From contig MHNO01000010.1 in assembly GCA_001819815.1 (NCBI GenBank), forward strand, positions 1 to 40,149: DNA of 40,149 nucleotides, read 5' to 3'. Positions 3,228-35,572 of the stretch are shown here, piece by piece. Both the position numbers and the translations under genes were made by a program. Under the pieces are notes generated by a model. It saw only the letters and a program-made list of their open reading frames with translations, was not told the origin of the DNA and made no database searches. Position 1 is the stretch's first letter, and each line of letters starts with the position of its first letter. Source of the stretch: Candidatus Ryanbacteria bacterium RIFCSPHIGHO2_02_FULL_45_17b. Lineage in GTDB: Bacteria; Patescibacteriota; Minisyncoccia; Ryanbacterales; 2-02-FULL-48-12.

Positions 3228-3300
3228 AAAGGTAAGGTTGACAGATTGTAAGAAATAATGGTAGTTCTTGGATAGATGTCGGAGAAAGGAGATTTGTGTT

Positions 3301-6424: not shown

Positions 6425-6430
6425 CCATTC

Positions 6431-13233: not shown

Positions 13234-13431
13234 GTGGAATTAACTACAGTATCGGATTTGTCTGTTGGTGACATCATAGAGGGTCCAGATGGTCCCGAGC
13301 TGGTGACGGACATTAAATCGTCATTAATCTCTTTTCAAGGGAATCACTGCATGACAGTGATTAGTGGACGGGAAAAGATTGTTCGGCATATCCGGGCAGT
13401 GGTATTAAAAAAGCTTCGCCTCATCCCTTAA
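13234..13431 (+). CDS. Small hypothetical protein (about 65 aa) between the two RtcB paralogs
   Basis: GTG at 13234, 6 nt after SD gaggggga. Conserved-looking MELTTVSDLSVGDIIEGPDGPELV.... The longer six-frame ORF starts at 13102. Confidence 0.35.
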   Translation: MELTTVSDLSVGDIIEGPDGPELVTDIKSSLISFQGNHCMTVISGREKIVRHIRAVVLKKLRLIP

Positions 13432-14854: not shown

Positions 14855-14910
14855 TGTAGTATTATTTTACAACAAAAATCGTGTTTTAGCAACTATAATA
14901 GGTGGTCCCC

Positions 14911-18225: not shown

Positions 18226-18242
18226 CTTTTTGTATTGCGTTT

Positions 18243-18352
18243 CTACTTTGTATATAAGAAAAATGTTCTTTATGGCCGACAGGTATTTATATAGAAGGAC
18301 ATCGCCTGCCTGCCGGTAGGCAAGTAGAATATTTTTCTTATATACAAAGTAG
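18243..18352. repeat. Perfect 22-bp inverted repeat (ctactttgtatataagaaaaat / atttttcttatatacaaagtag) flanking 66 nt that hold an inner tgcct-gccggt-aggca hairpin. Lies between the GT2 and GT-C genes
   Basis: Read directly from the sequence. No T-run follows. Confidence 0.85.
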
Positions 18353-18370
18353 ATCGAAGCTTCATGTAGT

Positions 18371-19837
18371 ATGAATATATCCATTTCAGAACCAATGAAA
18401 GATATTTTTGCGGTAGGCAGCGCCCTTCTCGTATTGGTGTGTTTTGCCGTGTGGCACCCGACGGGAGATTTTGTGTCTTCTCCATCGTACTGGGTTGATG
18501 AAGCGGTAAGTGTGGAAAAAGCGCGCAATTTTTTAACGTATGGGGTATTGGATGTCGCGGTTGCTCCCGGTGTTTTGTCTGGAAAGCCCTACGCGACAGC
18601 GGCCGCGGGTCCGCTTCTTACGCTTCCTCTCGCCGGCTTTTTTTCACTTTTTGGTATTGGAATTATGCAGGCAAGATTATATATGTTGTTGTGGCTGATA
18701 CTACTTCTATGTGTTTCTTATTTTCTTGTACGCAACATTTCAGGAAGGCGCGCCGCGCTGTGTGCCGTGTTATTACTGGCAACATTTTCCCCGCTGTATG
18801 CAAATGGCAAGACGGCAACGGGGGATATTCCGGGTTTTGTGGCGCTTTTGTTGGCGCTCTACTATCTCTATATCCGGAAGTGGTATCTATTTTCTGGTAT
18901 GTTGTTAGGTATTGCAACAACAACGAAGCCGTCGCTGTATATCCCCCTTATTGCCGTCGCTATTTTTGAAATAGTTTTTTCTGAACATGAAAGACGAATA
19001 CATAAGGCGGCAGTCGTTGTTGGTGGGGCGGCGCTTATTCTTGTGCCGTGGCTTATTTCTTTGCCTTCGCATCCGCTTGTGCAGACTTCATGGGAAGAAG
19101 TGTATGTTTTTTTTCAGAACCCGTTTCCATCCGACGCGACACCTGTCTTCGGTGTGGGCGCTTTATTCCATAGCACTGTTTTGCAATACATGGCGCTTGT
19201 CATGGCAGCCTTGTTTGGTGTGTGGCGCACGCGGGGAAAAGATGAAACATGGATACGATTTGTGCGTTTTGCTTTCTTATACGCGCTCGCGGCATTTGTG
19301 TTGTATCTTCGCAGTCCTGGCTGGTTGCGGTATCTTCTTAGTGGTACGCTCTTGCTGTTTCTTATTTTTCCACAGACGATACAAATGCTTTTACACCAGC
19401 GCGCGTGGCGGTATCGTGTTCCTTCGTGGACTGCTACCTTTGTACTTATTATGTTTATCGGAGCGCAGGCGGTTCATTTTTTCTTTTTTTCCTGGCGCAC
19501 CGCGTCTGACGCATCCATGCGCGATAGTACCGTGTTAGAGAGCATCGTACAATCACGCGAGACGGTTGGATTTATAGACGCGCCAGCGCTTGCTTCTTTA
19601 TTTGATTCGCGCCGAAAATATCAAGTTATACGTATTAGCGGAAATACTATAGTGGGAGAAAGTCCGCTTGCTGTTCGTGCTGATATGCTTCCGGACTATG
19701 TTTTTATTCCTTACAACAGGTTTGGTGATCAGTCAATGCGTGATTTTGTGGATCCGTATACAAATGTCTTGAAAGAACGTTATATGGATTATACGCCGCC
19801 CGACGCGCGTTTTTCCTTGTATAAGAAAATCCCATGA
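18371..19837 (+). CDS. GT-C fold membrane glycosyltransferase (PMT/ArnT-like, GT39/GT83-like)
   Basis: Multi-TM. N-terminal loop motif YWVDEAVSVEKARNFLTYGVLD (DE/Y...A.N). Large C-terminal soluble domain. Confidence 0.7.
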   Translation: MNISISEPMKDIFAVGSALLVLVCFAVWHPTGDFVSSPSYWVDEAVSVEKARNFLTYGVLDVAVAPGVLSGKPYATAAAGPLLTLPLAGFFSLFGIGIMQARLYMLLWLILLLCVSYFLVRNISGRRAALCAVLLLATFSPLYANGKTATGDIPGFVALLLALYYLYIRKWYLFSGMLLGIATTTKPSLYIPLIAVAIFEIVFSEHERRIHKAAVVVGGAALILVPWLISLPSHPLVQTSWEEVYVFFQNPFPSDATPVFGVGALFHSTVLQYMALVMAALFGVWRTRGKDETWIRFVRFAFLYALAAFVLYLRSPGWLRYLLSGTLLLFLIFPQTIQMLLHQRAWRYRVPSWTATFVLIMFIGAQAVHFFFFSWRTASDASMRDSTVLESIVQSRETVGFIDAPALASLFDSRRKYQVIRISGNTIVGESPLAVRADMLPDYVFIPYNRFGDQSMRDFVDPYTNVLKERYMDYTPPDARFSLYKKIP

Positions 19838-21162
19838 AACAGTATTTTTTGTCTCCCATTGCGATAGCGGTTATCATAGTGACGCTTGTAAGCGCCGCCT
19901 ATTCTTTTTACTATCACGATCGTCCTCGTGTGGATGCGCAAGCGTATGACTTTGTCGGATGGAATCTTGCGCGCGGTCTCGGGTATATAGAAAACGAACA
20001 GAATGCTGCAAATCCTCGGGCGGATGATGCAATTGTGCGTGTGGGGCCTGGATATCAGTTTTTTCTCGCGGGGGTATATAGTATGTTTGGACATCATGTA
20101 TGGATAGTGTGGATACTGCACGCGTTATTGCGCGGTGCTACGGTATATTTCGTTTATGCTATCACGCGATTTTTTTTGCATAATGAGAAGGCGTCACTTT
20201 TTGGAGCGTTCCTTGTTGGATTTTCACCCGATCTTATTGTGATTAATGGGCTTTTGCTTACCGAGACACTTTTTATATTTTTTTTGGTGGGGGCAGTGTA
20301 TAGTACGCTCCGTTTGATTTCTTCTGATATTTCCGCGACACGGTGGGCTTGGATTGGAGTTGGTCTTTTATGGGCGTGTGCCGTCCTTACTCGTCCTGTC
20401 GCATTGTTTCCTTTGCTTGTGACAGTCGGTGTACTTTTGTTCCATTGGCGGTGGCGGGATGCCGCGCTTGTTGTTCTCATGCCTTTGCTTCTTGTGGGTT
20501 CATGGTCCTATGCCATGACACAGCGATATGATCATTTTATTCTTACGACTACCGCAGGTTGGTATGATTTGTGGGTTGGAAATAACCCCGAAGCAACCGG
20601 CGGGTTTGAAAAATCTCCCGTCATTCAGGATTTTCGCGATGTTACATATGACAGTACCATACTTGAACGTGTTGGACGGGAAAAGTATTTTGAATTTTTA
20701 TTCAATCACCCATTTCAATTTTTGGAGCTTCAGTGGCGCAAAAGCACTCTCTATGTAAGTTCCATGAGACCCGGTGGGTATTGGATCCATTTGTTTGCTC
20801 ATCCATGGGACATGCGTATTACGCTTGCCGCGTCGCTTGTATGGACGTTGATGTTGTTTGCGGGCGGGCTCGCGGGCGGGTATCTTTGGTTTCGTGAGAA
20901 GCGCGATGGTACGTCTCGCTTGTTTTTACTTTTTGCGATAGCGCAGCCCCTTGCCGTTATTCCTATTATTGTTGAGACTCGGTACCGATACGCATTCTTT
21001 CCATTTCTTGCGGTCTTTGCCGCATACTTTGTTGCAACATACGTACCGAAGGTTTCCTTGCGTATCTTAGGATTCGTGTTTGTGTTTCTTGGAACAGCAA
21101 CACTATACGATTTGTGGTACAACTTTAGCGATATAATGGAAAAGATAGGAAGGGTACTATGA
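19834..21162 (+). CDS. GT-C fold membrane glycosyltransferase (PMT_2/ArnT-like)
   Basis: Motif DAQAYDFVGWNLARGLGYI in the first loop. More than 10 predicted TM helices. Confidence 0.7.
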   Translation: MKQYFLSPIAIAVIIVTLVSAAYSFYYHDRPRVDAQAYDFVGWNLARGLGYIENEQNAANPRADDAIVRVGPGYQFFLAGVYSMFGHHVWIVWILHALLRGATVYFVYAITRFFLHNEKASLFGAFLVGFSPDLIVINGLLLTETLFIFFLVGAVYSTLRLISSDISATRWAWIGVGLLWACAVLTRPVALFPLLVTVGVLLFHWRWRDAALVVLMPLLLVGSWSYAMTQRYDHFILTTTAGWYDLWVGNNPEATGGFEKSPVIQDFRDVTYDSTILERVGREKYFEFLFNHPFQFLELQWRKSTLYVSSMRPGGYWIHLFAHPWDMRITLAASLVWTLMLFAGGLAGGYLWFREKRDGTSRLFLLFAIAQPLAVIPIIVETRYRYAFFPFLAVFAAYFVATYVPKVSLRILGFVFVFLGTATLYDLWYNFSDIMEKIGRVL

Positions 21163-22244
21163 AGCGGATTCTCTATATTACGCGCGCACGTCTTTCTTTT
21201 TCCCGCGGGCATACCATTAACATTCTAAAGACAGCCGAAGCTGTTGCGAAAACAAAGCAATATAGCGTGGCGGTCTTTTCCTCCGCTCCTGAGCCCTTTT
21301 CACATGAGAAAATTTGCGGTGAAAAAAAAGTAACGTATCCGGTACCTCTTGATGTTTCGTCGCAGAAGCGATCCTATTTACTCTATGTGTGGAATAATCG
21401 TGATTTGTTTGATGTGTTATATTTTCGTGATCCATTTTTATGGCATATGGCGTTTCTCTCTCGCGTATTTTTAAGAAAGCGTGTCGTTTTTGAGGTGCAT
21501 GGCAGTCATGAATGGGTGTGGGGAAAACCGTTTTGGCATATGTCTGTTTTCTTTGCGCACGGCCTTGTATTTATTACGAAAGGTCTCATGGAATATTATA
21601 ATCCTTCAAAGCCCTGCGTGGTAACACACGTAAACGCTGTTGATATGAAGGAGTTTGAAAAAAATAATGTATTTTCTGATAAACAACGATTAGACCTAGG
21701 ATTGCCAGAGGGAGTTTCTCTGATTATGTACGCCGGGAATTTTTTATGGTACTCATGGGACGTGCTCATTCGCATGATGCATTTGGTTCCCCGACCAGCG
21801 ATGCTTATTTTAGTAGGCGCAAAGCCCGAGGAGAAAGAACTCATGGAAGAGGCGGCTCGCAAAGAAGGCCTACAAGATCGGGTGCAAGTACATACGCGCG
21901 TGGTGCCGTCTTTGTATCCTTCGTATATACAAGCCGCTGATGTCCTTGTAAATCCTCTTTGTATTTCTTATCCGGGAAGCATATCTTCAAAAATATTTGA
22001 ATACATGGCGGCAGGAAAGCCGATTGTTTCGGCGAAAGGAAAAGCTATGGAAGAGGTGCTTATACACGAGAAAAATGCGCTTCTTGTTGATTTATCGGCG
22101 GAGCAGTTTGGAAAAGCGGTGGTACGTATTTTGAATGATCCGTACATGGCGGCTGAACTTTCAAAGAACGCGCGCGAATCTGCACGGCGTTTTACATGGG
22201 AAGCGCGAGCGCTCGATATTTGCTCACTCCTGGAACGCATATGA
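21159..22244 (+). CDS. GT4 family glycosyltransferase
   Basis: SKIFEYMAAGKPIVSAKGKAMEEVLIHEKNALLVD motif. Confidence 0.8.
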   Translation: MKRILYITRARLSFSRGHTINILKTAEAVAKTKQYSVAVFSSAPEPFSHEKICGEKKVTYPVPLDVSSQKRSYLLYVWNNRDLFDVLYFRDPFLWHMAFLSRVFLRKRVVFEVHGSHEWVWGKPFWHMSVFFAHGLVFITKGLMEYYNPSKPCVVTHVNAVDMKEFEKNNVFSDKQRLDLGLPEGVSLIMYAGNFLWYSWDVLIRMMHLVPRPAMLILVGAKPEEKELMEEAARKEGLQDRVQVHTRVVPSLYPSYIQAADVLVNPLCISYPGSISSKIFEYMAAGKPIVSAKGKAMEEVLIHEKNALLVDLSAEQFGKAVVRILNDPYMAAELSKNARESARRFTWEARALDICSLLERI

Positions 22245-22987
22245 AAACAGACTATCGCATATCGCATCAAAGTGAGCAGGTAAGTCGTGTGTATGATGAA
22301 GTTCTTTATAAACAGGGAACATATGACGACGCATTATGGAGATGGGAACAGTGTATCCTTGAAAAAGAGATCACATTGCTGCAAACGAAAGCAACACCTA
22401 TTTCACTGCTTGATTTTGCGTGCGGCACGGGAAGAATTCTTACTTTTTTGGAGAACAAGGTGAACAATGCGGTGGGTGTGGATATTGCGGAAGAGATGCT
22501 AAGCCGCGCGCGGCAGGTTGTGCAGAATGCCCGTTTGATTAAAGCGGATCTCACTCGCATAGACGCGCTTCGGGGAGAACCATTTGATTTGGTAACCGCG
22601 TTTCGATTTTTTTTAAACGCGGAGCCTGTATTGCGTGAAGAAGCAATGGCGGTTCTTTTTCAAAAACTTCGAAATCAAGATAGCCTGCTGATATTCAATA
22701 TACATGGAAATCTTTGGAGTCATCGGGTCTTTACGAAAATAGGGCTTTGGTTTCGGGGAAAGCGTCTAAGCGTAAGCACGCGCCGCGAGATGGAATTACT
22801 TGCCAGGCGGCATGGTTTGGAGATGGCGCGGTGGTATGGGTTTGGCATACTTCCGAAGATAGCGTATCGGGTTATTGGTTCACGGATTGCTCATGGTATA
22901 GACAAGATTCTTTCTCATATTCCCGGTATGCGTTTTATATCTTACGATCTTGTTTTTGTATGTAAAAAAGGTATTGTAAAAAAGTGA
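22241..22987 (+). CDS. Class I SAM-dependent methyltransferase
   Basis: Motif [20 protein letters not shown] overlap with the upstream stop. The six-frame ORF begins at 22196. Confidence 0.75.
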
Positions 22988-23967
22988 AAAAAGCTCTTAT
23001 AACCGGTGTTACGGGGCAAGATGGTTCCTATCTTGCCGAACTCCTGCTCGAAAAAGAGTATGAGGTGCATGGAGTCATGCGCCGCGCTTCCACATTTAAT
23101 ACGGCGCGGATTGAGCATTTATACCAGGATCCCCATGTTGAAGGAGTGCGATTTTTTCTGCATTATGGCGATCTTGCGGACGCGAACACTATTCGCAAAC
23201 TTATCTATAACATCCGTCCGGATGAAATTTATAATCTCGGCGCGCAATCGCATGTGCGCGTTTCGTTCGATATCCCTGAATACACTGCAAACATTACGGG
23301 GCTCGGCACGCTTCGTATTTTGGAAGCCATGAAAGATTACGAACATGAAACGGGGGCAAAAGTAAAATTGTACCAAGCTTCTTCTTCGGAATTGTTTGGT
23401 GATGCGCCTCCTCCGCAAAATGAATCCACGCCATTTTCTCCGCGAAGCCCTTATGGTATCGCGAAGCTTTTTTCGTATCACACCGCAAAAAACTACCGTG
23501 AAGCGTATGGCATATTCGCAGTAAACGGCATTTTATTTAATCATGAGTCGCCGCGAAGGGGAGAGACGTTCGTAACCCGTAAAATCACACGGGGTATTGC
23601 CGATATTGTGGCGGGGAAGGCAGACAAGATTTATTTGGGGAATTTGGATGCTAAGCGCGATTGGGGGTATGCGCCTGAATACGTGGAAGCCATGTGGCGG
23701 ATGCTTCAACAATCCGAACCTGAAGATTTTGTAATTGGCACGGGGGAGGCGCACACGGTGCGCGAGTTTTGCGAGGCGGGGTTTCGTCATGCCGGTCTTG
23801 GTGATTGGCAGACATATGTCGGCATCGACCATCGATATTTCCGCCCCACGGAGGTAGATTTCTTGCTTGCCGATCCGCGAAAAGCAAAAGAAAAACTTGG
23901 GTGGGAAGCAAAAATAAAATTTGAGGATCTCGCAAAAATAATGGTAGACGCAGATTTGAAAAAATAG
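22984..23967 (+). CDS. gmd: GDP-mannose 4,6-dehydratase
   Basis: [40 protein letters not shown], short-chain dehydrogenase Y...K. Full-length and typical GMD. Confidence 0.9.
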
Positions 23968-24081: not shown

Positions 24082-26904
24082 CTAGTTCACCCCCAGCGCT
24101 TTACAGTCAGCGAATAGGAAAGCGGGGGATGTCTGCCCGCAAATTCCTACGTCATCCGCGCCGTTGGCATCTGCTGGGTTGGTGGTTCCATTATTTGTTA
24201 CGCCCGCGCAGGATGTAAGGAGATTCACTCCTGGAACAGGAGCACTCGCATCAATAAGCGTATTAGGCGCGATTGTGATCCCTCCCTGGAACGCGCGGAT
24301 TTCATTTGGTCCGCCTTTCTTGCTTCCTGCGGAATCTACCACCGGGCCAAATGAGTTGTTGACGCCAAGTCGCGCGAGATTTACATCTCCGCCCGCCCAC
24401 AACTTAATGCCGCCAATGGCGTTGTCGTTTCCAGATGACTCAAAGGCTCGGTCTGTGCCTATTACATCTCCGCCTGCCCGCACATCAACCACACCACCTC
24501 GCGGGTTAGATGTTCCCGTGCCTGCCGCAACCCCAGCAAAGCTTTTGCGTACGGGGGGTGTTGTGTCATCTCCATGTCCGTACACTTCAACATTTCCGAG
24601 AGCTTGTATTGATACACGTCCTGGTTTGTCGCTATGCGTGACAAATGAAAGCACTCCCGGGAATATATCATATTTAGTGCCAAAGGGATTGTACTCATCA
24701 AAGAACGGTTCGGCTGTGTTTGCATTGACGACTACATCTCCTCCAAACGCCGCGATATAAATATCAGGCTTGGGAGCTCCTGTTGAATGGGCTTTTGCCC
24801 GTGCGAGGACGAGTCCGTTTAGGACAACATCTCCGCCGCAACATGAAGCAATGGTTATATCACCTCCACCACGGTCAATACCAATGTTTTGTATCAGTGA
24901 CATTGGTCCCGTGGTTACATCACCACAGCAACTTGAAATAGTGATGTTTCCTGGAACACCCAATGTTCCGGTTACGCGATTTGTTATTTCACCGTCTATG
25001 GTTATTTTCCCATCAGCGTGAATAACAACATCACCCGTTTTGTCATTGTAGGACTCAACCAGAATGACCGCACCCCATTCAATGACAATCTCGCAAGTGG
25101 TGCGTATTTCAATACCTGGCGCGGCTCGCTCACTGCCGGCTGGTGGCACTTGGGCGGTCTTGATGGTAACGCCTGCCATAACGACGAGCTTTTTCCCGCC
25201 AAGATCAAAGATCGCCTTCCATGTATCAGCAGCCGTCAACTCACTTTTGTAGTAGGTGAAAAACGCACAGAGATCCGCGTCTCCAAGGCATACAGGAATG
25301 TCAGGGTTAAGATCAACTGTAGTGTCTTGGTCAACAATAACCTCAATAGGTTGTCCGCCGGCATCAAGCTCGCAAACAGGACAGTTTCCGTTGGGTGGTG
25401 GCGGACCTCCGCACGAACACGTTGGTAATACCACATACGCCGGAAGGGAAACCGCACCCGCGCAATTATCAGGGTTGAGAGTCAAAACAGGAGTTACGGT
25501 TCCATTGTAGGCGGTGCCTACGCACGATTCGAGCGTTACTGTTCCATTCGCAGGGACGCCACCGCCGCCGGCGTTGAGTTGTCCGCCTACGGTGCCAAGA
25601 AGCGCGCCCGTAAAAGAAACACCTTCGATACTGCCACCCTTCGGGGAAGTGCCAGTACTTGCGCCGAGCGCCTGGATTGAAGAAGCTCCAAAGTCAACAT
25701 TTCCGTCAGGAGCCCCAACCCCGCCTGCGTGTATGGTTATCTTCCCACCATGACTGCCACCTTTTGTCGCGTTTGCTTGCACAGCAAGGCCAGATGTTGT
25801 CACTGATCCATCTGTGGATTTTACCGTGACAATGCCCCCATTGGAGTTTGTCACATGAGACTGATTTGCATGCACAGCATACACAATCCCTGTTGTATCG
25901 CCGATGATTTTTATGTTTCCTTTTGCGAATATATCAATCCATGCGATCTCATTTCCACCGCTTTGCGCGGTGTCGGCGTTTACTTGGCCATTGTTCACGT
26001 CAAACGCGTTTATGGTCAAGGTACCGCCAGACCAAATTTCCACACATGCTGTAGAATTAGATGGTTTGTCGGGGCGATTTAGCCCGTTGCAATGATTTAC
26101 TGGATTGTCTGGTATGGTATGCCCAGGTCCAGTAGATTCTACGCGGCCAAAAATTTCGATTTCGCATCCACCCTCCAAGTGAACCAAATCGGCGCCCGGG
26201 TCGCGTCCTTTACTGCGCACAATACCCGTTGTGCCAACAGTAAGGTCACAACCGGCAATAATAGTCACAGGACCGCCTCCGGGTCGCTGTGTGCCGCCGG
26301 TACCGGTAAGTTTGCTTTCAGACGATACAAGCCCGTCAACCGCAACAATGCCTTTCGGGGCTTTCATGTAAATTTCACCCCCAGGGCATTTTGCGTCAAC
26401 GGTTATTTTCGCGCCGTTTTCAACTTTTATATCGCCCTCAGTCGAGAGAATATCAACCGTGCCGCCTTTCCCGCCGGAGCAGGAACTTGCGGTTTGGTTC
26501 ATGGAGATAAGCGCGCCACTCGCGCCGCTTCCTTTCAGCACCACATCGCTGGTTGCCGTAATAACTACTGTTGCGGCAACACCGCTTGCGGTGATTGCGT
26601 TACCAGTGATTTTAGTGCCATCGTCCATGACCAAGTCGCCGGTGATATCAATCTCCAACGTTGAGCCCGGGTCGGTTTTTATATGACCCGATCCAACCAA
26701 ATGGAGGTTTTTTGGGACACTAAACATGCCGCCGGCACCCATATTGTGTAGTGTTGTAATTTGACACTCCGTGGGGAGGTCAACGTCGCACGGAAGCGCG
26801 GGGTGCAGTGCCCGCGCCACCGATGGAGCAAAAAGAAAAGCACTCATGATGAGCACTCCCCAAATTGCAGAGGTAGAGCAAGATGCAGACAATTTTCTTA
26901 TCAC
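24082..26904 (-). CDS. Large (940 aa) secreted Gly/Thr/Cys-rich repetitive protein (beta-helix / adhesin-like)
   Basis: N-terminal signal peptide. Low-complexity body with many short G-rich beta-strand-like repeats and many Cys. No catalytic motif recognised. Confidence 0.6.
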   Translation of the reverse strand: MIRKLSASCSTSAIWGVLIMSAFLFAPSVARALHPALPCDVDLPTECQITTLHNMGAGGMFSVPKNLHLVGSGHIKTDPGSTLEIDITGDLVMDDGTKITGNAITASGVAATVVITATSDVVLKGSGASGALISMNQTASSCSGGKGGTVDILSTEGDIKVENGAKITVDAKCPGGEIYMKAPKGIVAVDGLVSSESKLTGTGGTQRPGGGPVTIIAGCDLTVGTTGIVRSKGRDPGADLVHLEGGCEIEIFGRVESTGPGHTIPDNPVNHCNGLNRPDKPSNSTACVEIWSGGTLTINAFDVNNGQVNADTAQSGGNEIAWIDIFAKGNIKIIGDTTGIVYAVHANQSHVTNSNGGIVTVKSTDGSVTTSGLAVQANATKGGSHGGKITIHAGGVGAPDGNVDFGASSIQALGASTGTSPKGGSIEGVSFTGALLGTVGGQLNAGGGGVPANGTVTLESCVGTAYNGTVTPVLTLNPDNCAGAVSLPAYVVLPTCSCGGPPPPNGNCPVCELDAGGQPIEVIVDQDTTVDLNPDIPVCLGDADLCAFFTYYKSELTAADTWKAIFDLGGKKLVVMAGVTIKTAQVPPAGSERAAPGIEIRTTCEIVIEWGAVILVESYNDKTGDVVIHADGKITIDGEITNRVTGTLGVPGNITISSCCGDVTTGPMSLIQNIGIDRGGGDITIASCCGGDVVLNGLVLARAKAHSTGAPKPDIYIAAFGGDVVVNANTAEPFFDEYNPFGTKYDIFPGVLSFVTHSDKPGRVSIQALGNVEVYGHGDDTTPPVRKSFAGVAAGTGTSNPRGGVVDVRAGGDVIGTDRAFESSGNDNAIGGIKLWAGGDVNLARLGVNNSFGPVVDSAGSKKGGPNEIRAFQGGITIAPNTLIDASAPVPGVNLLTSCAGVTNNGTTNPADANGADDVGICGQTSPAFLFADCKALGVN

Positions 26905-27208: not shown

Positions 27209-27628
27209 ATGTCGAAGGTGTTATACGCGGTGGCCATCTCGGGAGTCGTTATTCATCAGTCAGTGATAGGTTTTATAGGTGACGACGAGAGCGTTACAAG
27301 CAAACCAAGCAATGTGGCCGTCTGCGGCACCTTATTCGTGATGATGACAGGACTTGGACTCTTGATCATGAATATGCTTACATGGCAAACTCTAAAAGTG
27401 CTGATGATGGGAACGCTCCTCGTTCCTTTGAGCAACAAACTTCTCAATAGACTGAGCGAACTACCCCGTTTTCTCCTCATGCTCTTTCTCTTTTTAGCTG
27501 CGTATAAATTCTCTGGCGAGAATATCATATTCCACCCCCTCGGAGATGGTATCATCCTATTTGTTCTCGCAGTAGGAACATTTTTATCTGAAATTTTAGT
27601 GCCTTCTCGAGTAGATCAAAAAAACTGA
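27209..27628 (+). CDS. Small membrane protein (3-4 TM), hypothetical
   Basis: ORF with TATAAT at 27153-27158 upstream. Hydrophobic segments. Confidence 0.45.
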   Translation: MSKVLYAVAISGVVIHQSVIGFIGDDESVTSKPSNVAVCGTLFVMMTGLGLLIMNMLTWQTLKVLMMGTLLVPLSNKLLNRLSELPRFLLMLFLFLAAYKFSGENIIFHPLGDGIILFVLAVGTFLSEILVPSRVDQKN

Positions 27629-27868
27629 CAACTCCTCGGGGGCTCATTAAGCCGCTTTGCGCTCTCACGCTTAGACGGCTTTTTACATATTCCTACGATC
27701 TAGCGGAATTAGATGGCTCCGAATAAAACACACCTCCTCTATAATAACCTAAAGCGACTCCAATATGATGCATAAGATTCGAACTACGTCTTGAACGGAA
27801 AAAAGCTTGATTTTACTTTGCGTTCTCCATTCAATCTACTACTAAACCATAACGATAATCTTACTGTG

Positions 27869-27955
27869 CGGTGGGGGTGAGATTCGAACTCACGATACGG
27901 TTTCCCGTATAACGGTTTTCAAGACCGTCTCCTTAAACCGCTCGGACACCCCACC
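27869..27955 (-). tRNA. tRNA-Ser (anticodon UGA), type II with long variable arm. CCA not encoded
   Basis: Reverse-complement GGTGGGGTGTCCGAGCGGTTTAAGGAGACGGTCTTGAAAACCGTTATACGGGAAACCGTATCGTGAGTTCGAATCTCACCCCCACCG. Anticodon loop CTTGAAA. Close match to bacterial tRNA-Ser(UGA). Confidence 0.9.
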
Positions 27956-27996: not shown

Positions 27997-29580
27997 TTAA
28001 ATGTCAGAAAGACCCAACATAACAATTCGCGAGCGGATGGCTCCTGGTTGCCGACCCAGAGTTTCTGTCATAATGCGGATATCGGTATCGTGTTCAAAAA
28101 GTTTTATAAGCATGGCGTCTTCTTCTTCACTCCACGGCTTGTAGGCGTTGGAATGTTTTTCGCGGATCTTTTCAACTGAATATGCTTTTGGTTTTTCAAT
28201 TGTGGTTACGGCAACGTTACCCACACACGCCTGAATAAAGTTTTTATGCATGATATTGGTTTCTTGCGGGCTTATGGCGCGGAATGCGCTCTCTGCTGAA
28301 ATGGATGCTTCGCGAAATTCGGTGTCTTTTTGACGGGCATCCGGGTGAACACGCAAAGCTTGCTCGTTCCAGCCTGCAAGCTGTAATCCTGCTAACGTGC
28401 GTACGCGGGAAAGCGCCACATACCCCTGACCATATTCAAACGCCTGCGTTAAATCAATAAACGCGGAATCTAGCGACATGCCTTGGCTTTTGTGAACGGT
28501 AATTGCCCACGCAAGTCGTAAGGGGATTTGTCCGATACGAGCAAGAGCTTTACCTTCCGTTTCTACCGCCCACTCGGCAGGTTCTACCGTAAGCACGCGG
28601 CCCGAACGCAATTTTACGCGCGGATACCCCTCTGCGCTTTCAAAACCAATGACCTCGCCGGTTGTGCCGTTTACGAATCGCCCTTCGGGGCTGTTTTTTG
28701 TAAACATTACTTTGGCGCCTGTTTTGAGTAAAAGACGTTCAGGCGAAAGACAGCTTTTTTTCAGTTGTTCCACAAAGGATTTCGTGCCGTATTCTTTCAT
28801 GGTAAACGTATGCGGGGATCCGGAGAGTTTTTTTAGTTGCGTGTTATTTACCTCATCAACATCCGCGTTATGAGAAAAAAGTTTTGTGGTGTTTTTATAT
28901 TCATTTGGGGCGATATGTTTCCTTGTAGCAAGGTGCGCTTCATGTTCTTTGTTAACGTTTCCATTCCTGATTGCCGAGAGAATATTCAGGAATAGAGCAT
29001 CCTCCTGACGATGTTGTTCGGTAAGATAACAGACCACCGGTTGTGCAGCTTTCCAGCTTGGAGAGTGATATGCGAATTGGGCGCGCGGGTCTTTGGGCGC
29101 GTTTTCAAACGCGAGGCGTTCTCCCTGTTCGGTTTCGCGGCGCATAATGGGGGGAAGCTGAAAAAAATCTCCAACGAAAACAATTTGCAGACCGCCGAAT
29201 GCTTTTTCCGGATTTTTTAATTCACGACACACCGTGTCCACTAAACCAAGCGTATGCGCCGAGAGCATGGAAACTTCGTCTATTACGAGCACCTTCGCGC
29301 GACTGACGCGCCGCACCACGCGCTCATTTTGCGTAATGCGGTCAATATCATATGGAGTGAGTTCTTGTTTGATGCCGATACCGCTCCATGAGTGAATGGT
29401 CATGCCGCTTATGTGGGTTGCCGCTATGCCGGTAGATGCGGTTATGGCAAGCTCCACGCCGTGCGAACGCAAATAGGCGACATACTGGTTTGTGGTGTGT
29501 GTTTTTCCAGAACCCGGCTCGCCAGTCAAAAAAACATTTGCTCCGGTTTTTAGTATAGAAAGCGCTTCCTCTTGCGTCAT
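27997..29580 (-). CDS. Pif1/RecD-like SF1B DNA helicase (AAA_30) with a C-terminal Myb/SANT-like or HTH-like extension
   Basis: Walker A LTGEPGSGKTHT, Walker B VLVIDEVSML, motif VI ITVHKSQGMSLD. C-terminal KPWSEEEDAMLIKLFEHDTDIRIMTETLGRQPGAIRSRI. Confidence 0.8.
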   Translation of the reverse strand: MTQEEALSILKTGANVFLTGEPGSGKTHTTNQYVAYLRSHGVELAITASTGIAATHISGMTIHSWSGIGIKQELTPYDIDRITQNERVVRRVSRAKVLVIDEVSMLSAHTLGLVDTVCRELKNPEKAFGGLQIVFVGDFFQLPPIMRRETEQGERLAFENAPKDPRAQFAYHSPSWKAAQPVVCYLTEQHRQEDALFLNILSAIRNGNVNKEHEAHLATRKHIAPNEYKNTTKLFSHNADVDEVNNTQLKKLSGSPHTFTMKEYGTKSFVEQLKKSCLSPERLLLKTGAKVMFTKNSPEGRFVNGTTGEVIGFESAEGYPRVKLRSGRVLTVEPAEWAVETEGKALARIGQIPLRLAWAITVHKSQGMSLDSAFIDLTQAFEYGQGYVALSRVRTLAGLQLAGWNEQALRVHPDARQKDTEFREASISAESAFRAISPQETNIMHKNFIQACVGNVAVTTIEKPKAYSVEKIREKHSNAYKPWSEEEDAMLIKLFEHDTDIRIMTETLGRQPGAIRSRIVMLGLSDI

Positions 29581-29619
29581 AGAGGAAGTGTACTCCCAAC
29601 ATCACAAAGCTACAACTAC

Positions 29620-29661
29620 GGGAAACAAAAAAATAACATGCCCATCATGGTCGATGGGCAT
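29620..29661 (-). terminator. Rho-independent terminator (atgcccatc-gaccat-gatgggcat followed by TTATTTTTTTGTTT on the minus strand)
   Basis: 9-bp stem followed by a T-run on the minus strand, downstream of the ACP-like gene. Confidence 0.7.
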
Positions 29662-29664
29662 TGT

Positions 29665-29931
29665 TTAGAATCTGCCGTATTCTCTGCGATAGCAAGCAAG
29701 GATACGGTGGGTGAGACGGTCTACGGTTCTTACGCGTCCTTCATCAAAATCGGGTATCGTTATGGTGAGCTGGTACTCCAGGTTTGTGAGAATTTCTGCC
29801 ATGTCCAACTCACCAGCCCCTAAATCATGTGCGAATGATGCCCTCATATTGATTTCTTTTGCGGGCTTTTCTAACACATCAGCAATGACTTGAAGGACAA
29901 CACTCTCGATATTATGGGCTGATCTTCCCAT
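29665..29931 (-). CDS. Acyl-carrier-protein homolog with the phosphopantetheine-attachment Ser replaced by Glu (DLGAGELDMAEI instead of DLGADSLDTVEL)
   Basis: 88 aa. Aligns along helix I-III of bacterial AcpP (IESVVLQVIADVL...ASFAHDLGAGELDMAEILTNLEYQLTITIPDFDEGRVRTVDRLTHRI). GAG codon at the Ser position. Confidence 0.7.
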   Translation of the reverse strand: MGRSAHNIESVVLQVIADVLEKPAKEINMRASFAHDLGAGELDMAEILTNLEYQLTITIPDFDEGRVRTVDRLTHRILACYRREYGRF

Positions 29932-29966
29932 GGCATATCCCCAGATTGAAAGAATTTCTTGAAATA

Positions 29967-30338
29967 TTACGTTTCAAATTCATCACTCAAGGATCTTTTT
30001 TCCCTCCATGCGAGCTCCAGAGATACACGGCGAATATATCTTCCAACCATCGCCTCTATCCCTTCCGCTTCAAGTTGTGTCTGCAACAGAAAAGCCGTCG
30101 CCAGTGCTTGCTTTTCACTTCTCAAAATCCCTGTATCGTCTCCATGTGTAGGCCAGAGAGTGTAAGAACAATAATACGCTCCACGGTTTGCGGAACTCTC
30201 AATACTCTTCTTTATACGAGTGAACAGAATACGAGTAGTCTGCTCATCGGCTACCGGTTTGGGTTTGGGGGCAAGCCGTTGTTCCAAAGCTCTCTTAGTA
30301 AGTTCTCTCATTTGGATACCGAATGTCTTTTCTGTCAT
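29967..30338 (-). CDS. Hypothetical protein (123 aa), co-transcribed upstream of the ACP-like gene
   Basis: ORF with SD aggagga 7 nt upstream. 35-nt gap to the ACP-like gene. No family recognised. Confidence 0.5.
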   Translation of the reverse strand: MTEKTFGIQMRELTKRALEQRLAPKPKPVADEQTTRILFTRIKKSIESSANRGAYYCSYTLWPTHGDDTGILRSEKQALATAFLLQTQLEAEGIEAMVGRYIRRVSLELAWREKRSLSDEFET

Positions 30339-30400
30339 TACAAATCCTCCTCTCTATTTTTAGAGAGTCTAGCATTCGCGCTAAGAACAATCAAGCTAGG

Positions 30401-31990
30401 TTAGCATCCCGGAGGCGTCAGTCGGGGCACGATTGCTTTTTCGGTGCCAACTAAATTCCATTTATTCTTATTGTTTCGTATGCTTACATTCACCAGTTGC
30501 GTGTCGGGGCGCATGGAAACAGTCGGGTCAATTTGAATGTTTTCAAGGCGAACGCCCGTGCTTGCTACTGAAATTCCTGTGGCAGTACTTCCATCGCCGA
30601 CATTTATTTCACAGGCGTATTCTCCTTTTTGACCCATAAGATTTCCTATAAGCCATAATGGTTTTGTTATTGTTATGGAAGGAGCAATGTTGGCCGGTCC
30701 TGTTTTTGAGTCTATAACCAATACATCGCCTGCTTTGACTCTTGGGTCTTCGTTCGCTTTAGTATAACTTTCAAAGTCGCAACTAAAACGGGTTCCCGTG
30801 GTTGCTTCCGTACAAATAGACCAAATACGCGGAGAAAACATGTTCGGGTCGCCGTAGTTCGCGTCCAATTCTTTTGGATCCCTAAAGAAGCATCCGGCGT
30901 AGCCTTCTACTTCATTACAAACATTTTGATACCAAAGGTTATCAGGGTTTTCAGAAAGTACGGTTTTTGCTTTCTGACTATTATCGCGCGTTCGGCTCCG
31001 CGCTATTTGATTACTATGTGAATCGGCGGAAATATAATAGGGGTACGGAGATGTGTTTTTGCCTTGCCCGTTTCCTCTGACGATAGTTGAAATAATGCGA
31101 TTGTCGTGACTGCCATGTGTAAGCGCTACACCAGCATGAAGCTCCCAACCGATAAGCCAGCTATTGTCTACATTATCAAACATCACTGCTTCTTTTCCTA
31201 CCTTTGCTATTATACCTTCCGCGATGTCATGACCGCTGCCGTTTTTCAGGTAGATGCCGTGTCGTCCGCATCCGCGGATTGACGCAAGACGTATTTTAAG
31301 ATTATCAACACCCACCGCGCGGATGCCATCTTGGTCGGGGGCGTCACCCGTGCATATAATAGCTACATTTTGTAATGTAACGTTATCAGCGGCAATAATA
31401 ACACTTCCGCTCACCGTAATAGTTTTATCTTTTATGAGGCTGTCGGGAGTGTTTATTATATAATCAACCACTGATTCCGTACCGGTATTACGATTGATAC
31501 TGAAGAATGAATCGCTTGAATCGGTAATGGTTGGGTTACTGGCGCTTGATATCACAATTTTATAATCATCGCTGATAGTCTGACCGCTTGGCACGTTCCA
31601 ATAATATATTCCTGTATCAGCCGACGTGGATCTGATAATGGTTCGCGATACTTTATTGCCTTTAAAAAGATCTATTTTTATATCGGCAGGGTTACCGGTA
31701 AATTCCCATATGATAGCATGGGTGGAGCCGGGCGCCCATATTTCTTCGCCGTTCGGAGAAGAAAGCGTAATGGTTCCTTGTGCTATTTCGGAAAGAGCGC
31801 CCAAAGGCGCGGCAACAAGCGAATCGTTTGTTTTTATCATTTCATTGCGCACCCAAGTGCCAAAACCCAGCGCGACCAAAATAATAACCATCACCGCGGG
31901 AAAAACCGGCAATGGTTGGTTCCATGGTGTAATTTTTGAAGGTTCTTTCATAGATATGTAATTACTGATAATATGCATCAAGTATATCAA
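30401..31990 (-). CDS. Membrane-anchored secreted right-handed beta-helix (pectate-lyase-fold, PbH1 repeat) protein
   Basis: N-terminal TM helix. Repeats NVAIICTGDAPDQDGIRAVGVDNLKIRLASIRGCGRHGIYLKNGSGHDIAEGII... typical of parallel beta-helix. Confidence 0.55.
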   Translation of the reverse strand: MIYLMHIISNYISMKEPSKITPWNQPLPVFPAVMVIILVALGFGTWVRNEMIKTNDSLVAAPLGALSEIAQGTITLSSPNGEEIWAPGSTHAIIWEFTGNPADIKIDLFKGNKVSRTIIRSTSADTGIYYWNVPSGQTISDDYKIVISSASNPTITDSSDSFFSINRNTGTESVVDYIINTPDSLIKDKTITVSGSVIIAADNVTLQNVAIICTGDAPDQDGIRAVGVDNLKIRLASIRGCGRHGIYLKNGSGHDIAEGIIAKVGKEAVMFDNVDNSWLIGWELHAGVALTHGSHDNRIISTIVRGNGQGKNTSPYPYYISADSHSNQIARSRTRDNSQKAKTVLSENPDNLWYQNVCNEVEGYAGCFFRDPKELDANYGDPNMFSPRIWSICTEATTGTRFSCDFESYTKANEDPRVKAGDVLVIDSKTGPANIAPSITITKPLWLIGNLMGQKGEYACEINVGDGSTATGISVASTGVRLENIQIDPTVSMRPDTQLVNVSIRNNKNKWNLVGTEKAIVPRLTPPGC

Positions 31991-32079: not shown

Positions 32080-32751
32080 ATGGCAACATTATTTATTATT
32101 GCGACTCCCATTGGCAATCTCGAAGATATCACGCTTCGGGCGCTTCGGGTTTTGAAAGAGGTTGATTTGGTGCTCGCGGAAGATACGCGTGTTACGCAAA
32201 AACTTCTTCGGCGTTACGAAATCAAAAAACCTGTCGAGCGATATGATGAACATATTGCCGAACATATACACGCGCGTATTGCAGAAGATTTACGGCAAGG
32301 GAAATCTATTGCACTCGTGAGTGATGCGGGAACGCCGGGCATTTCCGATCCGGGTGCTCGGCTTGTTGCGTATGTGCGGGAACATGTGCCTGATGTTTCT
32401 CTTGTTCCCATTCCCGGACCGTCCGCGCTTATAACCGCACTATCGGTTGCGGGGGTATCTGCCGATTCGTTCACGTTTCTTGGCTACCCGCCGCATAAAA
32501 AGGGGCGCAAAACGTTTTTTCAGAATGTGCGTGATATTAAAGTGCGGCCGGTGGTAGTGTATGAATCGCCGCATCGTTTGCAAAAAACATTTACTGGTGT
32601 TGCTGAAACAATCGGAGAGGATACAAACCTAATAGTTGTAAAAGAACTTACGAAAATATACGAAGAAATTTGGCATGGTAGCGTAAAAGAAGCAACGAGC
32701 TATTTTCAAAAAGAAAAAGGAAAAGGCGAGTTTGTGGTGATTATTGTCTAA
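32080..32751 (+). CDS. rsmI: 16S rRNA (cytidine1402-2'-O)-methyltransferase RsmI
   Basis: LFIIATPIGNLEDITLRALRVLKEVDLVLAEDTRVT, tetrapyrrole-methylase fold signature. Confidence 0.85.
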   Translation: MATLFIIATPIGNLEDITLRALRVLKEVDLVLAEDTRVTQKLLRRYEIKKPVERYDEHIAEHIHARIAEDLRQGKSIALVSDAGTPGISDPGARLVAYVREHVPDVSLVPIPGPSALITALSVAGVSADSFTFLGYPPHKKGRKTFFQNVRDIKVRPVVVYESPHRLQKTFTGVAETIGEDTNLIVVKELTKIYEEIWHGSVKEATSYFQKEKGKGEFVVIIV

Positions 32752-32817: not shown

Positions 32818-33048
32818 ATGAAAAGGGAAGTTTTTATAAAACCAAAATCAAAACACCCGGGCGTGGTGGAAAAAGATGGCGTTCTTGAGGTGTCGGTTTC
32901 CTCCGCGCCCGTGGATGGTAAAGCAAACGAAGAAATGCTGGAGCTTCTTTCTGATTATTTTGAGGTGGCAAAAAGCGCCATTGAAATTGTAGGGGGCCAC
33001 AAAAGCCGCCAAAAAACCATCGAACTCCGCCCTTGGCAAAAACGGTAG
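32818..33048 (+). CDS. DUF167 / YggU-family small protein
   Basis: VDGKANEEMLELLSDYFEVAKSAIEIVGGHKSRQKTIEL matches the G.AN..L...L......S.V.I..G..SR.K.V pattern. Confidence 0.6.
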   Translation: MKREVFIKPKSKHPGVVEKDGVLEVSVSSAPVDGKANEEMLELLSDYFEVAKSAIEIVGGHKSRQKTIELRPWQKR

Positions 33049-33146: not shown

Positions 33147-34949
33147 ATGTTTCGAGTTTTTCTCGCGATAGTGTTGTCTGTGCTTGCTTTGATGTTGCCA
33201 AGCGGTATTGGTGGAGGAGTGAGTAGAAGAATTGAATTTGGCGGCTTTGGTCGAAGGATTGTCCAAGGTGTGCTTATCTTCTTTGCCTTTCTTGTTCTCC
33301 TCTCGACAAGTTTTACAACAATCGGTTCCAATGATGTTGGTCATTTATCGCGTATTTATCTAGGACGCCAACTTCCTCCGGGGCGCGTGATAGCTTTGGC
33401 AGGAGAAAATGGTCCGCAAGCTGAGATACTTGGCCCAGGGTTTCATTTTCGGTTTTTGCTCAATGTGTTATACAGTGTGACCACTGAGGAAGTTGTTGAG
33501 ATAAAGGCTGGCAAGCTTGGTAGACTAGTAGCGCGTGACGGTCAACCCTTGAAAGCTGGGCAGATGTTTGCAGAAGTGTTTGGTGACGGACAGATAGATA
33601 GCATGCTTGATGTTACATATTTTCTTACCAATGGAGGACAAAAGGGTCCCCAAATATTTGTCCTCACTCCTGGTAAATGGCGTATTAATAGATTCCAGTG
33701 GGACTTTGTGGAGGATGATGATACAAGTATAGAAAAAGGGTTTGTGGGCGTTGTTAAGTCAAATGTCCGTTCTAGTGTTAACTTTGGTGATATGAATGTT
33801 GAAAAGCCAGAGTTCTGTAGTCCTACCAAGGAGACAGATTTAAGTGGTGGGAAGCTTTCAGTGCCACTGGTTCCTGTTGGTTGTATAGGTGTTTGGGACA
33901 AAACACTTCTCCCGGGGAGGTACTATCTTAATAATGATGCTTATTCCATTATCAAGATGGACACACGCGTGCAATCCTGGGAATTCAAAGGAGGATTTAA
34001 ACGACGTACTGTTGCCTTGAATGTAGATCAGGAAGGTAAGATAACCCAGATACAATCAGAGACAGATGAGCCGGTGAACGATGAGTATGCGGATCGTGCA
34101 GTTTTTCTCAAAATGGAGGGTTGGGATATTCCTCAAGAACTCCGCGTACTGGTACAGATTACTCCTGATAATGCTCCAATTGTTGTTGCTTCAGTTGGTG
34201 GGGAGAAGGAAGTTGAGCATCGCATTATTGTCCCAGCTGTTCGCGCAATTATACGGGATGTGACTGGCGGTGGATTCATTGATGTAGAAGAATTCGACAA
34301 AAAAGGTGAACTTGTAAAAATTAAGCGTTTGCCACAAGTGCTTGATCTTCTCGTCAACCGTCAGGTTCTTGAGAGAAAGGCTCTTGATACTTTGAAACCA
34401 GAGGGACAAAAAGCTGGAGTAGACATAAAAGAAGTGCGATTTGGTGATCCAGCTGTTCCTCCTGAACTCCTTGTAGCTCGCCTTCGTGAACAACTTGCTC
34501 AACAACTTTCAGCTAGTTACCAGCAAGAGAAGTTGGCGCAGGATGATCGGGTCAAGACAGAAAATGCCCGAGCTACTGCCGATCAACAGGGTGGCCTCGT
34601 CCAGGCGCAGATTGAGTATTTACGGCAACAGGAACTCAAAAAGGCAGCACAGCTTGCTGGAGAGGGCGAGAAATTAAAGCTCACGGAGATCGCCATCGGA
34701 CAAAAAGCACAAGTGGCAGTACTAGGAGAAGAGCGTGTAGTTGCTTTACGCAAGTACGAGCTTCTCATAGAAAGGATATTCAATGCTATCGAGAAGCATC
34801 CTGAGCTTCTTACTGCTGCTCTCACCAATGTTGGTAAACTGGTACCTCAAACAGTCATTCAGACCAGTGGTACAGGTTCCTTGGATGGTCCAGCCGCTAT
34901 TCTTGGATCATTCCTTGGTGGGCAAGGATCAAAGGAGGTTGAAAAGTAG
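33147..34949 (+). CDS. Flotillin-like SPFH/band-7 domain protein with a long C-terminal coiled coil
   Basis: N-terminal TM. SPFH start GHLSRIYLGRQLPPGRVIALAGENGPQAEILGPGFHF. Flotillin-type EA-rich coiled coil (QQLSASYQQEKLAQDDRVKTENARATADQQ...). SD aaaggag. Confidence 0.6.
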   Translation: MFRVFLAIVLSVLALMLPSGIGGGVSRRIEFGGFGRRIVQGVLIFFAFLVLLSTSFTTIGSNDVGHLSRIYLGRQLPPGRVIALAGENGPQAEILGPGFHFRFLLNVLYSVTTEEVVEIKAGKLGRLVARDGQPLKAGQMFAEVFGDGQIDSMLDVTYFLTNGGQKGPQIFVLTPGKWRINRFQWDFVEDDDTSIEKGFVGVVKSNVRSSVNFGDMNVEKPEFCSPTKETDLSGGKLSVPLVPVGCIGVWDKTLLPGRYYLNNDAYSIIKMDTRVQSWEFKGGFKRRTVALNVDQEGKITQIQSETDEPVNDEYADRAVFLKMEGWDIPQELRVLVQITPDNAPIVVASVGGEKEVEHRIIVPAVRAIIRDVTGGGFIDVEEFDKKGELVKIKRLPQVLDLLVNRQVLERKALDTLKPEGQKAGVDIKEVRFGDPAVPPELLVARLREQLAQQLSASYQQEKLAQDDRVKTENARATADQQGGLVQAQIEYLRQQELKKAAQLAGEGEKLKLTEIAIGQKAQVAVLGEERVVALRKYELLIERIFNAIEKHPELLTAALTNVGKLVPQTVIQTSGTGSLDGPAAILGSFLGGQGSKEVEK

Positions 34950-35101: not shown

Positions 35102-35572
35102 ATGACATTCCATATGTTTAAAATAATTTCTATAATTATTATTGTGGGAGTAGTCGGTGTAGTGGTGTTTACGATGTATGTGCGGGAGACTGATCCGTTG
35201 AGTACGTACGAAACAAAAACAATTCAGATGGGGAATGCTAATCTGGAAGTACTTATTGCGGATAGCGAAGAAAAGCGCACAAACGGGCTTATGGGTGTTA
35301 CCAAATTATCAACAGATACGGGGATGCTTTTTATATTTCCCGATTCTTCCCCCCGTACATTTTGGAATAAAAACACATTGATTCCTCTTGATCTCATATG
35401 GATTTCAAGCGGGCGCGTGATTGGCGTTTCGTCGCTTTCTTCAATTACGCAAAGTGGCAATCATATTATTTCTTTACCATCACCAGATGCGGTTGATTGG
35501 GTGGTGGAGGTGAATGCCGGCTGGGTTCGTGCACGTGGGGTAGAGATAGGAACTGAAGTACATATAAAATAA
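35102..35572 (+). CDS. DUF192 (COG1430) family protein
   Basis: GLMGVTKLSTDTGMLFIFPDSSPRTFWNKNTLIPLDLIWISSGRVIGV signature. Start uncertain (TTG 35090, ATG 35102 or 35114). Confidence 0.7.
   Translation: MTFHMFKIISIIIIVGVVGVVVFTMYVRETDPLSTYETKTIQMGNANLEVLIADSEEKRTNGLMGVTKLSTDTGMLFIFPDSSPRTFWNKNTLIPLDLIWISSGRVIGVSSLSSITQSGNHIISLPSPDAVDWVVEVNAGWVRARGVEIGTEVHIK

Follow-up and report, generated by a model that had tools for sequence, protein, structure and literature searches.

What remains of an acyl carrier protein (ACP) when the residue that makes it a carrier is gone? ACPs are among the most conserved and most connected small proteins of bacteria, and their identity is defined by one Ser, the attachment site of the phosphopantetheine cofactor. 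The question is posed by an 88-amino-acid protein (OGZ43175.1) that is encoded in a 40,149-nt stretch of contig MHNO01000010.1 (henceforth termed the window) from Candidatus Ryanbacteria bacterium RIFCSPHIGHO2_02_FULL_45_17b. An initial annotation, made from the DNA letters alone, had described an ACP homolog with Glu in place of this Ser and had considered an origin in the candidate phyla radiation (CPR), which the source, a member of the Parcubacteria, bears out. Here, we report that the protein belongs to a family in which the cofactor position is acidic in every member. Because Glu or Asp always stands at the position of the cofactor Ser, a role other than that of a carrier is almost certain for this family, as judged from its sequences. 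On balance, we favor the view that the 88-amino-acid protein is a phosphopantetheine-independent docking or adaptor protein with an ACP fold, from an ACP-derived family without carrier function. An ACP-fold interaction module was also one of the options offered by the initial annotation.

The attachment site and the family that shares it

The Pfam model PF00550 matched the 88-amino-acid protein with 23.5 bits against a cut-off of 20.8, and phmmer comparison with PDB sequences returned ACPs only, with 7e42 as the best match (E 6.5e-10). Over 66 residues, the phmmer alignments contain no gap, with H-D-L-G-A-G-E-L-D opposite x-D-L-G-A-D-S-L-D, a register that was unchanged in a profile of the whole family. 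In this register, the attachment site of the window protein reads Gly40-Glu41-Leu42, with Glu41 encoded by GAG. The nearest Ser, S32, is equivalent to Ser27 of AcpP, which is not modified, and no shift by one or a few residues would place a Ser at the attachment site. The assignment of Glu to the Ser position thus stands, and a register shift, which the initial annotation had named as a way in which it could fail, is excluded.

An AlphaFold2 model computed from the family alignment (predicted local distance difference test score, pLDDT, 89.2; predicted template modeling score, pTM, 0.81) contains helices at residues 5–20, 41–55, and 70–85. Glu41 opens helix II and thereby occupies the position of the modified Ser of ACPs. 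The originally proposed alignment through helices I–III holds at the sequence level, where it is free of gaps, but the model shows no helix at the place of helix III. By fold, the protein belongs with the four-helix carrier proteins, and its last helix (70–85) extends past the C-terminus of AcpP. Structural matches include ACP-fold subunits of complex I, the mitoribosome assemblosome, MukBEF, MmpL5, and Ycf2-FtsHi.

Relatives were sought in 1.84 billion representative proteins by an exhaustive HMMER search and, further, by a word-indexed search, a profile search, and inspection of contigs. This yielded a family of about a dozen distinct relatives from Candidatus Ryanbacteria and allied groundwater Parcubacteria. 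An ortholog from a related species (locus L001, 1815–2087) encodes 90 amino acids with 74% identity to the window protein, of which only the last 57 are called in the database. A second Ryanbacteria clade comprises P0004, P0159, P0160, and L023, and further members are P0009 and P0157, P0010 and P0153–P0156, and P0062. P0158 is a population variant of the window protein and likewise has Glu at the Ser site. A scan of genome contigs for more members returned only the already-known locus, while a metagenome scan added one Ryanbacteria clade (L023/L024) together with unrelated pattern-matched proteins.

Throughout the family, across five subclades, the Ser site is occupied by Glu or Asp. Five relatives have Glu, six have Asp, and the window protein itself has Glu, and the (D/H)-S-(L/I) motif of the phosphopantetheine Ser is absent from all 12 sequences. 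The preceding position (–1), an Asp in ACPs, is Gly, Ser, or Leu in the family, with Ser in 8 of the 12 members; neither the canonical Ser nor an alternative Ser is kept across the family. Phosphopantetheinylation at the canonical site, which the initial annotation had already judged impossible for the single protein, would accordingly be precluded in every member by the Glu or Asp found there.

Conservation extends well beyond this site. The most conserved part of the family is the segment that comprises the DLGA loop, helix II, and the I-P-D-x-D-E loop; here, residues D36, D43, E46, L55, I57, P60, D63, and E64 are invariant. The C-terminal helix is marked by a family signature, R-T-[VI]-x-x-[LF]-x-x-R-[VI]-L-A-[CH]-x-R-[RK]-x-[HY]-G, that is absent from canonical ACPs; its Arg- and Cys-rich extension can be written as R-[VI]-L-A-C-[YH]-R-[RK]-x-H-G. 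Within this helix, R76, L78, A79, R82, and G86 are invariant, and Cys80 is present in 10 of the 11 aligned sequences. In P0004, the Cys is shifted by one position.

Between the window and L001, the ACP-like gene has a ratio of nonsynonymous to synonymous substitution rates (dN/dS) of 0.13 at a dS of ~1.2, at which synonymous sites are nearly saturated, and its flanking genes give similar ratios (0.09 for a helicase gene, 0.08 for a beta-helix protein gene). These values point to purifying selection on the ACP-like gene. The initial annotation had allowed that relatives with a Ser would turn its finding into a strain-specific lesion; no such relative was found, and replacement of the Ser is a selected trait at the level of the family. 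Residues 41–64 are identical at 23 of 24 positions between the two loci, without excess codon identity. A hidden RNA or regulatory element beneath the helix II codons was considered and rejected, codon identity being 0.65 there as compared to 0.62–0.64 in residues 1–40, and the Rfam search of the window returned a tRNA and no other RNA element.

In both loci, an antisense open reading frame (ORF) covers the 3′ half of the ACP-like gene (window 29572–29823, plus strand, 83 amino acids; L001 1872–2177, minus strand, 101 amino acids). Since the sense gene, when analyzed codon by codon, is under no added synonymous constraint in this region, the antisense ORF most likely just follows from conservation of the sense strand.

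Comparison with AcpP of type II fatty acid synthase (FAS; PF00550, TIGR00517) shows what has been kept and what has changed. The window protein shares 36% identity with E. coli AcpP over 63 gapless residues and has the same helical-bundle fold. Kept in the family are the DLGA motif, the equivalents of AcpP D38 and E41 (D43 and E46), the IPD motif, and the Thr-Val pair that opens helix IV, and the window protein retains half of the AcpP E47/E48 pair (E52, followed by Y53). The attachment Ser, the Asp of the DSL motif, and the strong acidity of AcpP are lost, whereas a longer, basic, Cys-containing C-terminal helix is gained, and the gene lies outside a fab/pls cluster. The shift in charge is substantial: 34 canonical ACPs from the same search have a net charge of –12.1 ± 3.2 and an isoelectric point (pI) of 4.22, whereas the window protein carries –3 and the other members +2 to +16. 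Family pI values range from 5.5 to 10.5 and lie at 8.6–10.5 in all members but the window protein (5.5). The family therefore lacks the acidic character of ACPs (pI ~4), although helix II alone is still acidic, with a net charge of –4 in the window protein. In true ACPs, the segment from the DLGA loop to I-P-D-x-D-E provides the docking surface for partner enzymes.

Profile models reflect this divergence. All NCBIfam ACP models scored below their cut-offs (best 48.6 against 71; TIGR00517 43.4 against 70.45), and PF00550 detected 5 of 11 family members at E ≤ 1. Database labels such as “acyl carrier protein” or “Carrier domain-containing protein” could thus wrongly imply a capacity to carry lipids or polyketides; in the functional sense, the family is best filed outside the ACP carrier family. 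A family with such a set of changes appears to be undescribed so far, and its distribution is very narrow.

Other Ser-less ACP-like sequences surfaced in the same searches. A 690-amino-acid multidomain protein of a higher-GC organism (L027, 1342–3414, plus strand) contains an internal ACP-like EDLGAGELDL, with Gly-Glu at the Ser site; it lacks the family C-terminal signature and was retrieved by the search pattern itself. P0030, P0084, P0128, and P0145 are unrelated ACP-like proteins with an N-terminal signal peptide of the lipoprotein type, a hydrophobic stretch that ends in ...SGC, ...TSC, ...NGC, or ...AGC. Where ACPs have DS, these four have DD, DD, NE, and DE, respectively, and they seem to form a family of their own, of exported lipoproteins with an ACP fold and no attachment Ser. 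Further matches that look cytoplasmic read DE, DD, GE, DQ, DV, or DY at the Ser site. Enrichment of Glu and Asp among such unrelated matches was not used as evidence for a preference for acidic residues because the Glu of the query biases the ranking of the top 150.

Genomic setting of the ACP-like gene

In four other lineages (loci L013, L018, L019, and L021), the ACP-like gene is part of a series composed of a cytidylyltransferase-like gene, rsmI, the ACP-like gene, DUF167/YggU, DUF192, an HtrA-like protease gene, a racemase gene, and rsmE, in which it follows rsmI after a gap of 18–28 nt. The window holds the same block (rsmI, DUF167, DUF192 at 35102–35572, protease, racemase, and rsmE) on the strand opposite to the ACP-like gene. 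Here, rsmI, DUF167, and DUF192 lie 2–5 kb from the ACP-like gene, and only a beta-helix protein gene and a 123-amino-acid ORF intervene (Table 1). In the second Ryanbacteria clade, an ABC exporter gene precedes the ACP-like gene, and typA and DUF167 are close by. Because the same block occurs in four lineages and still lies near the gene in the window, the ancestral setting seems to have been a housekeeping block, with the Ryanbacteria arrangements being secondary.

Table 1. Features of the window around the ACP-like gene
Feature	Position	Strand	Remarks
tRNA-Ser(TGA)	27868..27955	-	only Rfam match
PIF1/Dda-like helicase, downstream beyond terminator	27997..29580	-	PF05970 115.5 bits; context only
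Intrinsic terminator 3′ of ACP-like gene	29628..29661	-	10-bp stem hairpin 29661-29638, then T-run
88-amino-acid Ser-less ACP-fold ORF (OGZ43175.1)	29665..29931	-	labeled “hypothetical protein” or “Carrier domain-containing protein”
Codons 70-88, helix IV and family-specific basic Cys-containing C-terminal extension	29668..29724	-	VDRLTHRILACYRREYGRF
Codon GAG, Glu41, at ACP phosphopantetheine-Ser position	29809..29811	-	plus strand ctc; helix II residue 1
123-amino-acid lineage-specific orphan ORF	29967..30338	-	upstream gene of pair
Promoter-like TTGATT-N17-TAGACT upstream of 123-amino-acid gene	30366..30394	-	putative function
Beta-helix/Kre9-Ig-domain protein, upstream	30401..31951/31990	-	516/529 amino acids; N-terminal hydrophobic segment; context only
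rsmI (16S rRNA C1402 2′-O-methyltransferase)	32080..32751	+	TIGR00096 223.8 bits, cut-off 167.9
DUF167/YggU-family gene	32818..33048	+	PF02594 in L002 6884-7114; TIGR00251 for L019 homolog

Several members of this block deserve comment. RsmI of the window lineage (L019 counterpart at 5104–5775) has 223 amino acids and covers positions 2–220 of the 275-position TIGR00096 model; it thus lacks the C-terminal ~55 residues of a typical RsmI, a missing part for which the ACP-like gene could conceivably make up. Between DUF167 and DUF192, the window encodes a 600-amino-acid protein with a weak Band_7 match (33147–34949, plus strand). Since DUF167 and DUF192 are adjacent or nearly so in related loci, this gene resembles an insertion that is specific to the lineage. 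In relatives, the PF01467 gene upstream of rsmI was considered as a candidate CoaD and rejected, its best NCBIfam assignments being RfaE domain II or generic cytidylyltransferases and the CoaD models reaching 29–36 bits against cut-offs of ~103.

The initial annotation had placed the ACP-like gene next to a tRNA-associated accessory region. The tRNA is present, but the window contains no integrase, compositional anomaly, or phage or defense signature beyond generic helicase matches, and in the relatives the context is that of housekeeping genes. An origin from a phage, defense system, or mobile element was rejected on similar grounds: apart from the generic helicase matches, the PHROG and PADLOC searches hit only a phage ACP family (25 bits, by the ACP-like protein itself), and GC content is uniform at 0.42–0.52. 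As for genes that would serve a carrier, no fab or pls gene occurs in the 40-kb window, and tblastn with AcpS, Sfp, and AcpP as queries gave no further match, either in the window or across 27 related loci (202 kb).

In the window, the ACP-like gene is preceded by the 123-amino-acid ORF at a distance of 35 nt. Both hexamers of the promoter-like element upstream of this ORF are unchanged between the window and L001, with a partly different spacer; the element scores 8 out of 12 and is absent from the output of the promoter scanner, the threshold of which is 9. The terminator that the initial annotation had assigned to the gene was recovered as a hairpin of –16.8 kcal/mol (z –4.1), and a hairpin with T-run is found at the equivalent place in L001. 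Because promoter-like element and terminator are both kept in L001, it is reasonable to regard the two genes as a promoter-to-terminator unit in the window lineage.

The partner in this unit is far less conserved than the ACP-like gene. Among 5.8 billion clusters, the 123-amino-acid protein has one homolog, the product of a 125-amino-acid gene at the same place in L001, with 39% identity and a dN/dS of 0.42. Searches of Pfam, NCBIfam, PHROG, PADLOC, and PDB gave no match for it, and a PDB profile search returned nothing below E 0.5. Its single-sequence AlphaFold2 model reached a pLDDT of 52 and was for this reason left out of the fold search. An LYR/Isd11 protein, as suggested by “LLYRIK” in the L001 ortholog, was rejected at an hhalign probability of 0.3%; the window reads “ILFTRIK” at this place. 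With the gene confined to the window lineage and a single close relative, the pair would be a trait of this lineage and not a family-wide system. The two-gene operon of the initial annotation accordingly survives within these narrow limits, whereas the fast-evolving orphan is not supported as the defining partner.

Beyond the terminator, the helicase gene also adjoins in L001 (84% identity) but is not found beside other family members; residues 474–524, in the C-terminal part of the helicase, match the PHROG “D5-like transcriptional regulators” (E 4.6e-6). The beta-helix protein gene on the other side is likewise the neighbor in L001.

Possible functions

According to the docking or adaptor reading, an ACP-derived family would have given up its carrier function and kept the fold and the docking segment. 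A partner would be bound via the helix II face, with a fixed carboxylate at the place where holo-ACP presents its phosphodiester, and the new basic C-terminal helix would provide a second contact, with protein or RNA. The gene would ancestrally have closed a housekeeping operon, immediately after rsmI, and would in the window lineage have moved behind the 123-amino-acid gene to form the present pair.

Several points weigh against this reading. No partner was found for such a docking or adaptor protein. The family is tiny, with ~12 distinct sequences among 5.8 billion clusters, so that the conservation statistics rest on few independent lineages. Its gene context is not uniform, with rsmI adjacent in four lineages, an ABC exporter in the other Ryanbacteria clade, and the 123-amino-acid orphan in the window. 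In addition, the invariant acidic residue could simply reflect a preference for Asp or Glu at the start of a helix: both are favored in the first helical turn, and Gly and Ser, as found at position –1, are good helix N-caps. A Glu that mimics the phosphodiester is compatible with the invariant Glu/Asp, yet helix-N-terminus preferences would explain the residue equally well.

The initial annotation had taken such mimicry further and proposed a decoy or inhibitor of ACP-dependent enzymes, in which Glu41 imitates the charge of phosphoserine and blocks or regulates ACP-binding sites of the cell’s own or a host’s enzymes. In favor of this idea, the Ser site is acidic without exception, and D43 and E46, the counterparts of AcpP D38 and E41, are invariant too. 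AcpP E41, along with D35 and E47/E48, forms ion pairs with AcpS (bioRxiv 10.1101/2025.01.28.635281), and partners of holo-ACP contact the phosphopantetheine phosphate with Arg (PMC8547962). We nevertheless consider a decoy improbable and the claim unsupported, since the pronounced negative charge and low pI of canonical ACPs have been lost, the E47/E48 pair is only half retained, the N-terminus has no signal peptide or secretion signal, the gene context is of the housekeeping and not the accessory type, and neither the window nor the 202 kb of related loci codes for an ACP-dependent enzyme. A factor for RNA or ribosome biogenesis, with the basic helices I and IV as binding sites for rRNA or for an enzyme of ribosome assembly such as RsmI and the ACP fold as scaffold, has a little more to commend it but is still unlikely in our view. 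The gene lies directly 3′ of rsmI in four lineages, pI values are high in all members save the window protein, the RsmI encoded here is short, and an ACP is part of the trypanosome mitoribosomal assemblosome (6sga). Conversely, adjacency to rsmI is gone in both Ryanbacteria clades, the window protein is mildly acidic, Pfam and NCBIfam searches revealed no similarity to RNA-binding families, and in CPR genomes, which are streamlined, gene neighborhood by itself says little.

A carrier that uses a different nucleophile, with Cys80 or the Ser at position –1 holding an acyl or other group directly or by a cofactor, is very doubtful. Although Cys80 is nearly universal and several members read A-S-E/D at the site, position –1 is Gly in the window protein and P0009 and Leu in P0062, the Cys of P0004 is displaced, and no enzyme for loading or transfer is conserved beside the gene. 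Moreover, the D35N exchange in the DSL motif of AcpP is by itself enough to block modification by AcpS in vivo (bioRxiv 10.1101/2025.01.28.635281). Least credible is a decaying, functionless relic of acpP left behind after loss of fatty acid synthesis. CPR bacteria are generally unable to make fatty acids, and Parcubacteria with homologs of type II FAS still lack ACP-processing genes (PMC7242380); the scores of the family under all curated ACP cut-offs would also suit decay. A relic is, however, at odds with a dN/dS of 0.13, with ORFs that are intact in every lineage, with conservation of motifs that were gained relative to canonical ACPs, such as the C-terminal signature, and with the retained ribosome-binding site and terminator.

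The docking or adaptor reading finds a parallel in eukaryotic organelles, and the concept of a Ser-less ACP is already known from those of apicomplexans. In Plasmodium, the mitochondrial ACP (mACP) carries a Ser-to-Phe exchange, is essential, and binds Isd11-Nfs1 after loss of mitochondrial type II fatty acid synthesis; in the search made in that study, Ser-less ACPs were confined to Apicomplexa and Vitrella (PMC8547962). As in mACP, the Ser is replaced in ACP homologs that are kept under selection, and the non-Ser residue at the attachment site is conserved across related species. The two differ in that function purely by protein binding, after loss of fatty acid synthesis, has been demonstrated experimentally for mACP, whereas the present family is known here from its sequences. 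The replacement residue is hydrophobic in mACP (Phe in Plasmodium, Cys or Gly in Toxoplasma) but always acidic in the bacterial family, and the partner of mACP is the LYR protein Isd11 with Nfs1, whereas the 123-amino-acid neighbor shows no LYR similarity. Fe-S assembly genes are also missing from the vicinity of the ACP-like gene. An origin independent of mACP is likelier because the closest solved sequences are those of bacterial type II ACPs.

A family of docking or adaptor proteins would thus constitute the second independent case, after apicomplexan mitochondria, of an ACP that outlived its cofactor and its pathway, and would show which non-carrier role of an ACP merits keeping in ultra-reduced CPR genomes. 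What is new is an acidic-substituted yet non-acidic bacterial ACP derivative. One could go further and see in the protein a full CPR counterpart of the apicomplexan Ser-less ACP: an essential, cofactor-free scaffold that survived the loss of fatty acid synthesis, with the carboxylate replacing the phosphopantetheine phosphate and the basic helix recruiting a second component, possibly RsmI, rRNA, or, in the window, the 123-amino-acid protein. This more elaborate picture is speculative, and we give it a modest chance at most.

Use of the ACP fold as a docking module in large assemblies is known from complex I (SDAP/NDUFAB1), the trypanosome assemblosome (mt-SAF32), MukBEF-AcpP, MmpL5-AcpM, and the ACP of Ycf2-FtsHi. 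At least the mitochondrial cases outside fatty acid synthesis use holo- or acyl-ACP, with the acyl-phosphopantetheine inserted into the partner, a mode not available to a family that cannot carry the cofactor at the canonical site. Specialization within bacterial ACPs is illustrated by the anammox-specific ACP of Kuenenia stuttgartiensis (PDB 7auf), a specialized ACP according to its depositors, with 25% identity.

Further features of the window

Outside the region discussed above, the window encodes two adjacent RtcB RNA-ligase paralogs on the minus strand (11783–13177 and 13421–14854; PF01139, 139 and 187 bits). They are surrounded by a large region for cell-surface glycosylation (5236–10795 and 14902–23967) that contains at least six GT4, one GT2, and two PMT_2 family glycosyltransferases, a polysaccharide deacetylase, a methyltransferase, and an epimerase, and that is preceded by secreted-looking proteins with LTD/PKD and peptidoglycan-binding domains. 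Five ORFs have no Pfam match at E ≤ 1e-4: 24082–26904 (minus strand) and, on the plus strand, 27209–27628, 322–1080, 3268–3642, and 16787–17518. The first two of these also have no PHROG or PADLOC match, and the largest of the five encodes 940 amino acids (921 in the public record).

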